A DNA stretch of 22,254 bases from a virus (Duplodnaviria; Heunggongvirae; Uroviricota; Caudoviricetes), in the IMG/VR virus record IMGVR_UViG_2648501165_000020; one strand, 5' to 3'. Position 1 is the stretch's first letter; the number at the start of each line of letters is the position of its first letter. The position numbers are program-made. Positions 6,001 to 18,000 of this stretch are shown piece by piece.

Positions 6001-9000
6001 GTGCTGCGTTCTGTGCTCAGTGCTGATGGTATCCCTTATGTTCTGGTGTTGCTGGGCGTGTGTACGGGGAGTAACAGCGTTGAGCGTTACCTGCCGGAGG
6101 TGAAGACATTAACCCATCTGGCTGGCGGACGCTGGGCTGAGTTCCATACGGCAAGGCGGGGATTTATCCGGCTGGGAAAACGACTGGGCTTTGAGCGAAT
6201 GCCGGATGATGAGGATGGCTTCATGGTGTTCAGGATAGCGGTCTGACTGCTACAGTTTTCATCATTGTGTTTAAACCAACATTGTAATTCACATTCTGAC
6301 CCTGCTCCGGCAGGGTTTTTTGTTATCCAGGGGGCCATTATGGGTGGAAGTAAAGGCGGTGGTGATACCAAAGTAAAACCAACAGCAGCGCAAATAGCAC
6401 AGGAAGAAGTGGCCTGGAAAGGGTGGCAGGATTACAAAAATATCCTCCGCCCGGCTGAAGATAACTTCATGGAAAAGGTCGATGACCTGAACAGTGAGCA
6501 GCAGTACGACAATATTGCTGGCACCACAAATCTGGGGTATCAGAAACAGTTTGGCGAAGCACGGAAGGAGCTTGCGGGTAATCTTGCTCAGTCCGGCGTT
6601 GACCCATCCAGTGGTCGTTTTAATGCGGTAATGAATGCGAACCAGAGTGACCAGGTAACCGGGCAGATTGACACAACCACACGGGGGCAGGTATCGCAGG
6701 CAGATAAGTATGTTGCCGGGCTACAGGATGTTGCTGCTCTCGGTTCTGGTCAGAAGGCGGATGCGTTACAGAGTTTTAACTCTCTGGCAGACAGCAGTCT
6801 GGCAAAAGCTAAATCGGATGCACAGGCGGCGTTTACGAAACAGCAGGGGCGAGCCTCTCTTGTTGGCGCTGGTCTGGGTGCGGCAGGTGCATATGCGATG
6901 CATAAGGCTGGCGGTAGCGGAGGAAGTGGCGGGGCTAAAACACCTGGCACCGGCGCTAATGCCATTCAGCATCAGGCTCAGAACTGGAGACTGTAATTAT
7001 GGAGTATGGCAAATACGAAACTCTCGCAAGGGCTGGTTATTCAGGAGCAGACCGCCCACAGGGTGACTGGCAGACGTCAGCAGCGCTGACACGCCAACAA
7101 TACGACGACTGGCGAACCAGATATTTGCCCCGCGTGGCAAGGCTGGCTGACCTTGGGGAGAACAACAGTCTGATGAATGCACAGCTTGCACGGGTGGGAG
7201 GCCTTGCCACTTCCAGTCTCCGTACAGCGCAGATGGCGCAGGATAACCAGATGGCGAGATACGGGGTAAACCGCCCGGATAATCCCGACAGTAATACGCT
7301 GGGGTTACGTAATGCCCTGGCAATTGCTGGCGCGAAAAATGGTATCCGTGAAGCCGAACAGGATCGCCAGATGAATATTCTGACGGGGGCTTCTGCACCG
7401 GCAAGACAGAAACTGAGTGTTGGCGGCCAACTGGTGGCAGCGTAAGGGGGCAATATGGGATACGGTTTACTGGATATTGCAAATCAGTCGCGGCGTGAGG
7501 CATTACAGGGAATAAGTGACGCAGACAGACGACGTGAAGAAATTGAGGCTGCGAACAAACAGATGGCGGCGCAACAGAAAGCGCAGAACAAGCAGAATAT
7601 CGGTACGGGCATTGGTACGGGGGCGGCTATTGGCGCATCCGTTGGTGGTCCTGTTGGTGCTGTTGCTGGAGCAGTAATTGGCGGCATTGCTGGTTCTTTG
7701 TTTTAAGGAGTGGTGAATGAGCGGATTTGCACAGGGGTTACTTGCCGGATTCAGCACCGTTGACCAGGCAATGACCCGTCGTAAGGAGCTTGGTCTGCGT
7801 GAAGCACAGCTTGCCCGGCAACAGAAAAATAACGAGCGCGATTTTGAGTTTGCGCAGTCTCAGTTTGAACATAATAAAAACGTTGATCAGCGGAACTTTG
7901 ATTACAGAGCCAAAGTTGACGACCGTAATTATGCACTGAAGGAAAGGGAGTTTAACGCTAACCAGAATTACCGGAATGCGTCACTGGGTATGGAGCAGCA
8001 GCGACTCCAGTTGCAGAAATACAACCAGCGACGGCTTGAGTATAACGATATGATTGCCCATAGCCAGCCACTAATGGAAGCGCTTGGAAAAGCAATTGAG
8101 GCTGGCGATCAGGAGGCTGCAACGCGTCTGTTCGGGCAGCTGCCAAAGGGACATCCATTAATTCTTATGTCAAACGAAGGCTATGCAGCGAAAGCGGGTC
8201 AGGCCGTGATCAACCTGCAAAAAATCTTTGGTGATAAGCCGGACATGGCGATCGATTCGCTGAATACCCCGGAAAATCTCGATGTGCTTTCCGGCGTGTT
8301 TGCCCCGGAACTACAACAGCGTATTGGCATGCCTGATTCAACCGGGGACAAAACGATAAAAGAGGCCAGGATTGGCAGTATCGTACCAGCGCAGCAGGAA
8401 GGGTACGTACTTATTGGCCTTGATCTCACATACAGCGATGGCTCCACCGCGCATAAACCTGTAACAGAATACGGCAGTGCGCACCCTGATGATCAAACCG
8501 TGCTGGCGATACCCGTTGATAAGGCTATCGCTCAGGTCAGGGATCGCAGCAAATTTGCAGAGATATCGAAAAATTATGGTTATTTTATGCCGAAGCAGCA
8601 GGGACTTTCTCTGAAAGAGCTTCAGAAGGGGGCCAGCAACGTAGCGGCGGACGCGATCAAGAATGGCGGTAATGCTCAGGCTGCGGTGGATGAATATTAT
8701 GCTGCGACTGGTTCACAACCGCATCAACAGAAAATTCAGCAACAAAAACTTCAGCAACAGGTTATCAACTGGGCGGGAGATGATCCTGATAAGCTGTCAT
8801 TTGCCAGAAATGTAGCGGCCCGTCAGCCTGAAATGCTGGAACCTCAGAATCAGAAATTGCTGGAGAACGGGTATGCGAATTTTCTCCGTATTCAAAAGGC
8901 CAGGGGGGAACAGGCCAGAGATGAAAGTGCTTCATCTGCATCTCAGTTTATCCGTGGACTGAAACAGAATTACGCCCAGTAATTCACGATATTCCATTAA

Positions 9001-15000: not shown

Positions 15001-18000
15001 GCGAAAATCAACCCGAAAATGCCGGACGGCGGTTCGGGGATGACCAACGCGGAAGCGGCGGAAATCATGCAGCGTGTACGTAACAGTGGCAAACAGGCAC
15101 AGTATGACCGTCTGGCAGGGATTATTGACGATATGCTGGCCCGTCGCCGTGAGCTTATCCGTGAGGCCGGACTTGAAGAGAACGGTGTGGTGGATGCCTG
15201 GCAGAACGCCTACCGTTACTACGTTCCCCTGAAAGGTCAGGATGTTGACGGTGTGGTGTCACTGCCCCGTACAGGTAAGGGCTTCACCATCGGCGGACGT
15301 GAAAGCAGGCAGGCCATGGGGCGTGCATCCCGGGCACAGTCTCCGTCCACTCAGGCGATACAGGACCTGAGCGAATCGCTGATCCGCCATCGCAAAAACG
15401 AAGTGGGTAACGCCTTCCTGAAACTGGTGCAGGATAATCCCGACAAGGATTACTGGCAGGTATTCACCGATGACAGACCGGATACCATGCGGACGATTGC
15501 AGAGCGCAAGGACCAGGAAACTGGTGAAACCATTCGCGAAGTTGTCGAACGCCCTGTACCGATGGCAATGATGGCAGACCGGTACTTCACCACCAAAAAG
15601 AACGGCAAAACGTACTACATCAAACTCCATGATCCGCGCCTGATGCGTGCGATGAAGAGTATGGGACCGGAAACCAGCAATGCCTTTGTTCGTACGCTGG
15701 GGAAAGTTAACCGCTTCCTGGCAACGGTGAACACGTCGTATAACCCGGAATTTCTGGTCAGTAACTTCATCCGTGACGTGCAGACGGCGGTGATGAACCT
15801 GAAGGCGGAGCAGGGAAGGAGCGACGGTAAACTGAAAGGGCTGGATAACTTATCCGCCCTGGCTGTGGTGAAAGACAGCCGTTCTGCCATGTCAGCCGTA
15901 TACGCCAGTCTGCGTGGTATAACCCTCACGGGAAAAGGTGCACAGTGGCAGAAGGTGTGGAAAGAGTTTGTTGAGGGCGGAGGGAAAACCGGCTGGTTTA
16001 ACATGGGTGACCTTGAAGGCCAGCAGAAGGAAATGGATCGCCTTGTCTCACTGGCGAAGGGGGGATGGAAAGGCCAGAGTATCGGTGCATGGAATTCGTT
16101 CCTTAACCTTGTCGAGGATGCCAACGGTGCGGTTGAAAACGCTCTGCGTCTTTCTGCCTATAAGCACGCCCGTGATGCCGGTTTGTCACGCCAGCAGGCG
16201 GCGTCTCTTGCCAAAAACATGACGGTGAACTTTAACCGTCGTGGTGAGCAGGGAGCGCTGATGAACTCGCTGTACATGTTCGCCAACGCCAGCATTCAGG
16301 GGACCGCAAACCTGGTGAGAACGCTCGGACATCTTAATGGCGACGGGCCGTTACTGGAGCGCCTTCGCTGGAAGAATCTCAATGTACCGCAGAAAATCGC
16401 GCTTGCAGCTGTGGGAGCGGGTTATCTGCTTGGCTCGCTTAACCGCAGTGTTGCGGGGGAGGATGATGACGGGGTTAACTGGTATGACAAGGTGCCGTCT
16501 CATGTGAAAGAGCGTAACCTCGTCATTATGAAATCGGTGTTCGGGGGCAAGGCCGGAGAGTACTGGAGTATTCCTCTGCCTTACGGGTACAACGTTTTCT
16601 TCCTGCTCGGGCATACTGCTGAAGGTGTGGCGGCGGGTGACCTGACGGCGTCCCGTGCTGCCGGTAATGTTGTTGGTGGTGTGCTTGGTGCATTCAGCCC
16701 GATTGGCAGTGAGACGTCGGAAACACTGTCCGGGGCATTGCTGAAAAATGCAGCGCCGACCATTCTGCGTCCGTTTGCGAACCTTGCCATGAATGAAAAC
16801 TTCATGGGGGCGCAGATTTACCAGGAGAACATGCCGTTTGGTACACCAAAACCTGACAGCCAGCTGGGAAGACGTTCAACGCCAGAAGCGTACAAGGCGT
16901 TTGCATCCTGGCTGAATGCGTTCTCAGGTGGCAGCCAGTACCGTCCCGGCGCGGTGGATATCACACCGGAATCGCTGAAATTCTGGATTGACTATATCTC
17001 CGGAGGGACAGGGCGCTTCATTTCCAAAACCACGGATGCGGCGGTGAAATCGCTGAATGGTATTGATATACCGGAACAGCAGGTGCCCTTCCTGGGGAAA
17101 ATTTCGGGGGAGGTGATGCCGTATGCAGACCAGCAGAAGATGTACGACCGGATGACAGAGATTGCGCAGTATCACGCAGAGCTGAAGAGTCTGACCGGTG
17201 CAGAAAGAACGGCGTTCATTGACGAGAACAACGGAAAATTGTCGATGAACGGGCTTATGCAGGATACCCGGAAGAGACTGAAGGATTTGCGTAAACAGCG
17301 TGATGCCATTTACGCCGACAGTACTCTCAGTCTGGCGCAACAGTCGGCGATGGTGAAATCGGTAGAGCGGGATATGAAAATTGCCGTGGATCGGTTTAAC
17401 CGCGAGTACAACAAAAAAGTGGGAGTGGATTAACAGAAATGGCCCCGTACGGAAGTGCGGGGCTGATTAAGAAATAAACACTCATTGACCTGTAATAACC
17501 GGAGCTATTAACATATAGTCAGAAGAGCATTTCATGTGATACAGAGAGCCGATTTATGTTTAATGAAGAAAAAGTTGCGCAAATGGCAGCGTATTTGCTG
17601 AAAAAGCATGGCGGATCTATGCGTTTCATTAAGCTGAAGCAGCAACGGTAATGGCGAATAGCATTTATGAGCAAAATAATCTTGATATGTTATTAGGCGA
17701 TCTGATGTAACCGGGATGATGTTCACCCCTTATCGCCGGGGAACAATACCGGCAATCAGAATTGCGGATGGAACTATTCAGGCCCGATGATATCGATGAG
17801 GAGTTTTTTCAGCCAGTATTGGATGGCTTTCTTATATCCAAATATACGCCATTTGACATCCTCCACGCCCTGAAGGACGGGGTTTTACAGCGCACCGGAT
17901 AAGATTCGGTGTTTTGTTGAAAAATACTGTGATAACAAACAGAAAACCCGTCAGTAAGACGGGCTTAGCAAGCTGGGACGGTTACTTTAATAATTTCAGT

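Follow-up and report, generated by a model that had tools for sequence, protein, structure and literature searches.

A 22,254-nucleotide (nt) stretch of Caudoviricetes DNA (IMG/VR record IMGVR_UViG_2648501165_000020; the whole stretch is called the window herein) carries five co-directional genes, g1 to g5, the last of which encodes a giant protein, and a sixth gene, g0, lies upstream of them. We consider it probable that g1 to g5, together with g0, are the internal-virion and ejection module of a Shiga toxin (Stx) podophage of the Sepvirinae (933W/Sp5/phi24B type), and that the giant protein would also deliver a protease- and RNase-like payload. The five open reading frames (ORFs) of 218, 148, 83, 421, and ∼2,793 amino acids (aa) lie on the plus strand (6340 to 17433); an initial annotation made from the sequence alone had recognized them and called them a cargo operon. 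Positions 6000 to 18000 of the window are 99.8% identical to Enterobacteria phage VT2-Sakai (Sepvirinae, Traversvirus; 933W/phi24B type) and match 247 phage records, nearly all of them from Stx-converting phages. The orthologs in phi24B (vb_24B_43 to vb_24B_48; GenBank accession no. HM208303) have the same order and spacing and 97 to 100% aa identity (97% for g5 and phi24B gp47, 100% for g4). The equivalents in VT2-Sakai are orf66 to orf71, 933W carries counterparts, and the blocks of these three phages show no biological difference from that of the window.

A cryo-electron microscopy and proteomics study of phi24B (bioRxiv, April 2026; 10.64898/2026.04.10.717836) reported gp47 (2,811 aa; LPD5, LPD1, LPD38, and MuF-C) to be abundant in virions and absent from the map; its authors proposed that gp47 is an encapsidated ejection protein and listed its organization in the capsid as an open question. 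A peptide search of the supplement tables of that study revealed peptides of all five g1-to-g5 orthologs. By peptide-spectrum matches (PSMs), g5 was the second most abundant protein of the phi24B virions (10,962 PSMs, compared to 17,998 for the major capsid protein and 2,226 for the portal), and the orthologs of g4, g1, g2, and g3 contributed 1,634, 523, 129 (of which 83 came from the in-solution sample), and 13 PSMs, respectively. In the in-solution sample, g4 gave 179 PSMs versus 101 for the portal. All five near-identical orthologs are present in purified virions and absent from the symmetric reconstruction. The PSMs of gp47 peaked in the first-listed gel slices (EA1805-09), ahead of the slice in which the 724-aa portal peaks, suggesting that the giant protein is largely unprocessed in the virion. 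The g0 ortholog was not in the portion of the phi24B protein table covered, and two of its peptides were not found in the portion of the supplement searched.

Length-normalized PSM counts scaled to 12 portal copies gave crude estimates, valid as orders of magnitude only, of about 20 copies per virion for the giant and tens each for g1, g2, and g4. The same arithmetic recovered ∼6 nozzle and ∼11 adaptor copies and underestimated the capsid protein and one adaptor. Also detected in the phi24B virion preparation were the orthologs of a 205-aa "membrane associated protein" (3973 to 4590) and of Lom (94 and 23 PSMs, respectively), which may be membrane contaminants or minor particle-associated proteins.

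The order of the genes is conserved far beyond the Stx phages. In Vibrio phage 1.205.O, a giant of 3,130 aa is preceded by genes for 131, 201, 117, 77, and 442 aa that correspond one for one to g0 to g4, and the block directly follows head-closure and fibre genes with no lom-type insert; in Stx phages it comes after the nozzle and central-fibre genes. Eighty IMG/VR loci were fetched with a profile of the C-terminal ∼900-aa module of g5 (C-module), and g1 to g4 were sought in them by iterative hidden Markov model (HMM) searches. The order g1-g2-g3-g4 immediately upstream of the giant was found in about 15 diverged loci (C-module identity, 42 to 74%). More distant loci have other small genes upstream of the giant, often one for a ∼318-aa glycine-zipper-rich protein. 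Since distant Vibrio and metagenomic phages carry the genes in this order right behind their tail genes, the block is part of the morphogenesis operon and not cargo. The same holds for g0: collinear homologs of it were seen in Vibrio phage 1.205.O and at many diverged loci, and it belongs with the block. The late operon of lambdoid Stx phages is Q dependent, and the absence of a sigma-70-like promoter between 5300 and 9200 in a promoter scan fits transcription of the block within it.

Where the initial annotation had seen no assignable motif, the giant contains four Pfam families with matches above the gathering scores, namely, LPD5 (E value of 6.5e-45), LPD1 (aa 1374 to 1453; 1e-23), MuF_C (1.4e-17), and LPD38 (7.8e-48); residue numbers of g5 follow the 2,806-aa form throughout. 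The Gly/Ala-rich patches, acidic stretch (∼aa 470 to 620), Pro-rich linker (∼aa 700 to 900), and two HExxH motifs (aa 1297 and 1564) that it described are all present. In a structure model of aa 1031 to 1870 (53 aligned sequences; predicted local distance difference test score of 81), a single unit comprises the end of LPD5, the HEWFH motif, and LPD1. Residues H1297, E1298, H1301, E1388, and E1395 are retained in 48 to 49 of the 53 sequences, which, as a sequence signature, is the gluzincin pattern. The NCBIfam model CLCA_X spans aa 1195 to 1450 of g5 (E value of 2e-43, under its subfamily cut-off). In many cases, the unit is found by itself, as a protein of roughly 460 to 540 aa. One such LPD5-LPD1 protein (484 aa) adjoins an LPD3 protein (locus L085, 7001 to 10482) near genes of phage type (an integrase fragment, zf-dskA_traR, and DUF2730); the gluzincin unit circulates outside giant proteins too.

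The second HExxH motif, HEIIH, lies within a modelled helix after beta-strands. The hub domain of polyvalent proteins termed MPTase is defined by an HExxH in a helix after a small beta-sheet and a Glu in a later helix, and the small zincin domain of g5 is probably of this kind; the Pfam MPTase model had no match in g5. The small zincin abuts the C-module in the Vibrio giant, and the selecase and minigluzincin fold matches probably belong to it. The folds of g5 were matched by the protein-cleaving zincins MtfA, lethal factor, Pro-Pro endopeptidase, and SprT/Wss1, and the fold search gave no likeness to cell-wall amidases or M23/M15 enzymes. MuF_C is an alpha+beta domain in the model and is not the peptidase, as the HExxH motifs lie in other domains. 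No Pfam family was found for the N-terminal domain (N-domain), and sequence searches of the Protein Data Bank (PDB) with the whole of g5 and with the gluzincin segment returned no match.

Scans with Pfam, NCBIfam, and PADLOC found no helicase, methylase, RNA polymerase, Rhs, or secretion domain in g5. A helicase-methylase, an N4-type virion RNA polymerase (vRNAP), and an Rhs-type or other large toxin, the last also suggested by the initial annotation, were therefore rejected as candidates, as was a tape measure protein, since the source is a podophage and no tape-measure family was matched; with PHROGs added to these scans, no full-length homology to any of these classes was found. An assembly artefact or frameshift chimera is ruled out, because hundreds of records contain the giant ORF intact: full-length copies of this 8.4-kb ORF are present in 186 phage records, and the gene was found in 427 of 5,426 complete Escherichia coli genomes (full length in 423; up to five copies per genome). 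Close homologs on independent viral contigs (UViG) are intact in 21 of 21 cases (2,783 to 2,808 aa). Mosaic variation among close homologs is concentrated in aa 14 to 213, 814 to 1213, and 1714 to 1913, and both zincin cores and the C-terminal third are 96 to 99% conserved. Three antisense ORFs annotated inside the giant gene of the phi24B GenBank record (HM208303; L086, 11692 to 15269), vb_24B_50c, 51c, and 52c, are probably spurious.

These domains place g5 among the polyvalent proteins described by Iyer, Burroughs, Anand, de Souza, and Aravind in 2017 (PMC5512222), a group of very large multidomain proteins, encoded by phages and conjugative elements, for which packaging and delivery along with the DNA were predicted. 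The LPD5, LPD1, MuF_C, and LPD38 families were defined there for polyvalent proteins; MuF-C was assigned to the PBECR (barnase/EndoU/colicin/RelE-like) RNase fold, LPD5 was considered possibly enzymatic, and LPD38 was found to be restricted to phages. That study left LPD5, LPD1, and LPD38 without a function and mentioned neither Stx phages nor 933W. With polyvalent proteins, g5 shares LPD5, LPD1, LPD38, MuF-C/PBECR, a zincin HExxH, the location among late virion genes, and packaging. The suggestion of the initial annotation that the giant resembles virion-delivered polyvalent or ejection proteins agrees with its domains and with the 97 to 100% identical orthologs in virions. In contrast to the 2017 description, our reading takes the C-terminal part of LPD5 together with LPD1 to be a single gluzincin unit, and it takes the N-domain and the C-module to be fixed bookends.

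Relatives of the C-module occur in Vibrio phages (41% identity), Ralstonia GP4-like phages, and Burkholderia phage Bcep22 (26 to 27%), with a counterpart in Methanosarcina virus MetMV (MK170447, 40102 to 42492; 28.6% identity) and weaker ones in a Bacteroides phage and Bacillus megaterium podophages (PQ571269 and NC_028926), so that the module crosses very different cell-envelope types. The giants Bcep22 gp75 and JC1 gp69 (Lessievirus) and those of Ralstonia GP4-like phages share the ∼900-aa C-module (26 to 27% identity over 82 to 97%). In Bcep22 and JC1, the giants (4,500 to 4,600 aa) are virion associated by mass spectrometry and are encoded last in the morphogenesis module, after the genes for small virion proteins; the genes upstream are only faintly similar to the block (g1 versus Bcep22 gp70), and the name "DarB-like" does not stem from the module shared with g5. 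According to the JC1 paper, its 4,515-aa giant and three upstream gene products (gp64, gp67, and gp68) are virion associated by mass spectrometry, and the portal, capsid, and head-closure proteins of JC1 are homologous to those of 933W.

The region from aa ∼1900 to 2806 is common to all 53 diverged giants retrieved, as follows from fetching by the C-module. The HEIIH domain (aa 1464 to 1700) occurs in about 33% of them, the N-domain in 19%, LPD5-LPD1 in 13 to 17%, and MuF_C in 2%. The linker (aa ∼470 to 1030) is not conserved in the diverged giants and is one of the variable patches among close homologs. A word-index search with the N-terminal 503 aa of g5 returned E. coli and Salmonella fragments only; an exhaustive HMMER search (aa 14 to 500) matched 99 representative proteins, in the long ones of which (1.8 to 4.7k aa) the domain is N-terminal, and 28 of 58 long proteins also end in the C-module. 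The middles of 13 N-domain giants contain LPD39, methyltransferases, Sno/SNF2/ResIII helicases, and ddrB-ParB, which are DarB-type sets. The co-occurrence of the N-domain with g1 to g4 (both, 11; N-domain only, 9; g1 to g4 only, 4; neither, 16) is a weakly positive association that is confounded by phylogeny. The giant family looks like a fixed frame of N-domain, variable payload, small zincin, and C-module.

Among the small proteins, g1 belongs to PHROG 611 with a weaker match to PHROG 8003 ("virion structural protein"), and it is weakly similar to the virion structural protein Bcep22 gp70. The g3 protein has six overlapping GxxxGxxxG motifs in the block's only strongly hydrophobic segment and is 44% identical to its Vibrio homolog. 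RefSeq labels it "bacteriocin," and we rejected this identity: its Pfam Gly-zipper and Bacteriocin_IIc matches are all under the gathering cut-offs (Bacteriocin_IIc, 19.7 bits versus a cut-off of 27.1) and the latter is confined to the Gly-rich segment, and the gene is conserved inside the virion gene block. The N-terminal GxxxGxxxG of g4 is invariant in the alignment, g4 always stands directly before the giant gene, and a profile search against the PDB gave no relative among solved structures. For g0, no Pfam, PADLOC, or NCBIfam match was obtained. By position, we infer that g0 resembles P22 gene 14 or T7 gene 13, and on account of this correspondence it could be an assembly factor for internal proteins. 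In the giant, glycine-zipper or moderately hydrophobic helices are located in the N-domain (aa 201 to 217, 344 to 360, and 422 to 438) and the LPD38 region (aa 2461 to 2565).

Taken as an ejection module, the block would work as follows. The five proteins would be made late, loaded into the T=9 head, and exit through the short tail after the central needle is lost. Their glycine-zipper parts (g3, the g1 C terminus, the g4 N terminus, and the N-domain and LPD38 region of g5) would insert in the envelope and help to build or extend a DNA conduit. The giant would be a chassis of N-terminal domain, exchangeable middle, small zincin "MPTase," and ∼900-aa C-terminal module, the Stx-phage middle being the predicted LPD5 plus lethal-factor/MtfA-like gluzincin unit and the RelE/BrnT-like MuF_C domain. 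This payload may act in the cytoplasm of the newly infected cell on host proteins or RNA, or it may cut the giant into active pieces, and the small zincin may serve to release domains, a role that Iyer et al. suggest for MPTases (PMC5512222).

Known ejection systems offer parallels to this arrangement. The P22 genes for gp14, gp7, gp20, and gp16 likewise stand right after the needle gene (151, 229, 471, and 609 aa, versus 133, 218 [148 and 83], 421, and 2,793 aa in the block), and those for T7 gp13 to gp16 stand right after the tail genes, a positional parallel that supports the ejection reading. The block differs from both in lacking reliable similarity, in its two extra small proteins, and in a last protein that is 2 to 4.5 times larger and has enzyme domains. 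In N4 and DEV, the pore (gp52/gp73), tunnel (gp51/gp72), and giant vRNAP (gp50/gp71) genes likewise form one late operon for a small membrane protein, a ∼450- to 650-aa helical protein (DEV tunnel, ∼500 aa), and a giant, in phages with a T=9 capsid, and the giant has a conserved C-terminal part, an adjacent MPTase motif, and a central effector. In contrast to the block, the order of the genes runs the opposite way with respect to the giant gene and the payload is an RNA polymerase, which g5 does not have; no homology is detectable. The MPTase-containing C-terminal region of the N4 vRNAP is needed for encapsidation, and the protein is packaged unprocessed (PMC5512222); in the N4-like phage DEV, the giant vRNAP binds the tunnel protein through its conserved C-terminal part.

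Several observations weigh against our reading. Sequence and fold searches of the PDB and profile comparisons found no homology to the characterized ejection proteins of T7, P22, and N4/DEV. A phmmer comparison of g5 with N4 gp50 gave no match, and hhalign found no homology of the C-module profile with the N4 gp50 C terminus or of the g4 profile with N4 gp51. When HMM profiles of g0 to g4, the C-module, and g5 were compared with the P22, T7, and N4 ejection proteins, only g1 matched P22 gp7, marginally, at 9 bits. The hhalign probability for g1 against the single P22 gp7 sequence was 51% over 43 columns covering the most conserved part of g1, and it falls to 2% against the (low-diversity) gp7 family profile. 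The glycine zippers of g4 and g5 have moderate hydropathy only, and with the exception of g3, no segment of the block is hydrophobic enough for a classical transmembrane helix. The ∼20 copies of the giant obtained from the crude counts are far above the ∼3 copies of T7 gp16 in the T7 record. In addition, the phi24B authors set a "bacteriocin homolog" and a "transcription regulation factor" aside as contaminants (10.64898/2026.04.10.717836). The former is evidently g3 and the latter possibly g4. These calls were made on annotation alone: the supplement labels the g4 ortholog "Transcription factor?," a label that apparently goes back to what an old GenBank note says of vb_24B_47 ("similar to putative transcription initiation factor"). 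The conservation of the gene order across distant phages argues that g3 and g4 are genuine virion components.

As an alternative, the giant could be a purely injected anti-defence or host-takeover effector like P1 DarB, with g0 to g4 as its loading or anchoring factors and none of them in a DNA conduit; the model for such helpers would be P1 DarA, Hdf, DdrA, and Ulx, head-internal loading and anchoring factors for DarB. DarB is likewise a large head-internal protein, and according to the JC1 paper it is injected with the DNA (injection of g5 is our inference). Relatives with the N-domain and C-module carry methyltransferases, SNF2/Sno/ResIII helicases, and ddrB-ParB; PHROG and GenBank label relatives "DarB-like antirestriction"; the JC1 paper argues for unidentified Dar-type helpers among the neighbouring virion proteins; and the giant is abundant yet invisible in the symmetric reconstruction. 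We nevertheless regard this alternative as unlikely. The methyltransferase and helicase domains of DarB are absent from g5, and the "DarB-like" label reaches g5 only through PHROG 10089, which matches the LPD38 region. Moreover, a short-tailed phage still needs a trans-envelope extension, for which no other candidates are evident in the part of the late operon within the window, and glycine zippers recur in g3, g4, and g5.

The opposite simplification is a purely structural ejectosome, in which the giant is a trans-periplasmic conduit whose metallopeptidase digests peptidoglycan and which has no effector role in the cytoplasm. T7 gp16, which unites a cell-wall hydrolase domain with channel formation, provides a precedent. 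This model was proposed in the phi24B preprint (10.64898/2026.04.10.717836), and we consider it improbable: the preprint puts the peptidase on MuF_C, a predicted RNase-like PBECR fold, whereas the HExxH motifs lie elsewhere; the folds are like those of zincins that cleave proteins and unlike cell-wall amidases or M23/M15 enzymes; and in relatives DNA-acting enzymes take the place of the middle, an exchange that makes sense only for cytoplasmic action. Finally, a cargo or moron operon whose genes serve the lysogen (toxin, defence, or superinfection exclusion) and not the virion would agree with the adjoining true morons (lom upstream, ygiW/BOF and hok/sok downstream) and with the "bacteriocin" label of g3, and it is very improbable and already contradicted by the data, given products in purified virions, the same gene order in distant phages without those morons, no promoter-like site, a bacteriocin match that is under the cut-off and comes from the Gly-rich segment, and, for defence, no meaningful PADLOC match (none for five of the six proteins scanned and only marginal ones for g3, with E values of about 0.005). 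A 2012 paper on gene expression in phi24B lysogens contained nothing specific to the block genes.

Within the internal-virion and ejection reading, a wider proposal is tentative and may well be wrong. The N-domain, small zincin, and C-module might constitute a portable delivery chassis, with no counterpart among solved structures, in podophages of the 933W, Bcep22, GP4, and Vibrio types and apparently in a Methanosarcina virus as well. Among relatives of the 933W/Vibrio type (C-module identity of about 42% or more), g0 to g4 might be its co-inherited loading or trans-envelope partners. The Stx-phage payload, of a protease/RNase type instead of the DarB type, might then represent an uncharacterized class of injected host-takeover or anti-defence effectors present in ∼8% of complete E. 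coli genomes.

The coordinates of the block and its flanks are given in Table 1. Shine-Dalgarno-like sequences precede all five genes g1 to g5, as the initial annotation had noted; the spacers are 2, 9, and 10 nt and then 69 nt (for ATG 9052) or 30 nt (for ATG 9013), so that its 30-nt spacer is incompatible with a 2,793-aa product. The g5 start is probably ATG 9052, 13 codons downstream of the annotated start, because it is preceded by a GGAG at 7 nt and coincides with the start of the PHROG 616 profile, whereas ATG 9013 has no ribosome-binding site and sits within the hairpin and its run of seven T residues. Lying between g4 and g5, this hairpin might influence read-through or the stability of the mRNA. 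The Hok-family locus, which the wording of the initial annotation implied to be upstream of the block, is downstream on the minus strand; the upstream side consists of lom and g0. The ygiW/BOF and hok/sok genes are true morons downstream of the block. Elsewhere, in the early/anti-repressor region of the prophage, an Rfam match to sRNA-Xcc1 (RF02221) was found at 21075 to 21163 on the minus strand (69 bits versus a gathering score of 53).

TABLE 1 Positions in the window of the g0-to-g5 block, the predicted domains of g5, and flanking features
Feature	Position	Strand	Description
lom	4681-5415		Upstream flank of block
g0	5845-6246	+	133 aa; upstream of the initially annotated block; no family assigned
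Hairpin + T-run	6298-6317	+	Terminator-like, directly before g1; consensus scan only
g1	6340-6996	+	218-aa virion protein; conserved N-terminal helix region, Gly/Ala-rich C terminus (aa 172-199)
g2	6999-7445	+	148-aa virion protein; PHROG 596
g3	7455-7706	+	83 aa; N-terminal charged helix, C-terminal glycine-zipper hydrophobic segment (aa 47-83)
g4	7717-8982	+	421 aa; N-terminal GxxxGxxxG, Q/R/E-rich helical region, conserved central domain
Hairpin + T7 run	9015-9034	+	Between g4 and probable g5 start; GC-rich; overlaps region of database start codon at 9013
g5	9052-17433	+	Giant polyvalent virion protein, 2,793 aa (2,806 aa from ATG 9013)
g5 N-terminal domain	9400-10422	+	aa ∼130-470; glycine zipper aa 422-438
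g5 linker region	10423-12102	+	aa ∼470-1030; acidic, then Pro/Gly/Ala-rich (composition)
g5 LPD5 alpha/beta domain	12202-12651	+	aa 1064-1213; Pfam PF18799, E 6.5e-45; confidently modelled
g5 predicted gluzincin-type metallopeptidase domain	12595-13371	+	aa ∼1195-1453; HEWFH 1297-1301, E1388/E1395; includes LPD1
g5 predicted second, small zincin domain	13477-13902	+	aa ∼1489-1630; HEIIH 1564-1568
g5 MuF_C domain	14134-14568	+	Pfam aa 1763-1852; modelled fold aa ∼1708-1830; predicted PBECR (RelE/barnase-like) fold
g5 C-terminal ∼900-aa module	14710-17430	+	aa ∼1900-2806; mostly helical; contains LPD38 (aa 2489-2694, nt 16477-17094)
ygiW/BOF OB-fold gene	17982-18326	-	Downstream of block
hok/mok-type toxin gene + sok antisense RNA	18446-18770	-	After ygiW/BOF gene; Rfam RF01794, 112 bits

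Much of this was already known. The genes have been in databases for years (VT2-Sakai and 933W), the families were named in 2017, and the virion association and the ejection hypothesis date from 2026; RefSeq/PGAP names g5 "LPD5/LPD38 domain-containing protein," in agreement with the expectation of the initial annotation that the gene would be known but uncharacterized. In the searchable literature, only 10.64898/2026.04.10.717836 and PMC5512222 mention LPD38. What is added here is incremental: the presence of all five proteins in the virion data, the extension of the block to g0 and its synteny across distant phages, the bookend architecture with an exchangeable payload, the two separate zincins, and the corrected domain assignment and start codon.

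The Sepvirinae spread Shiga toxin genes, and how their DNA crosses the envelope is a standing question. If our reading is true, g1 to g5 would be the missing ejection apparatus, and ∼14% of the phage genome would code for a package of delivered enzymes; the targets of these enzymes would have a bearing on host range and on lysogen formation. The middle of the giant, being exchangeable, would then also be a natural scaffold for protein delivery into bacteria.

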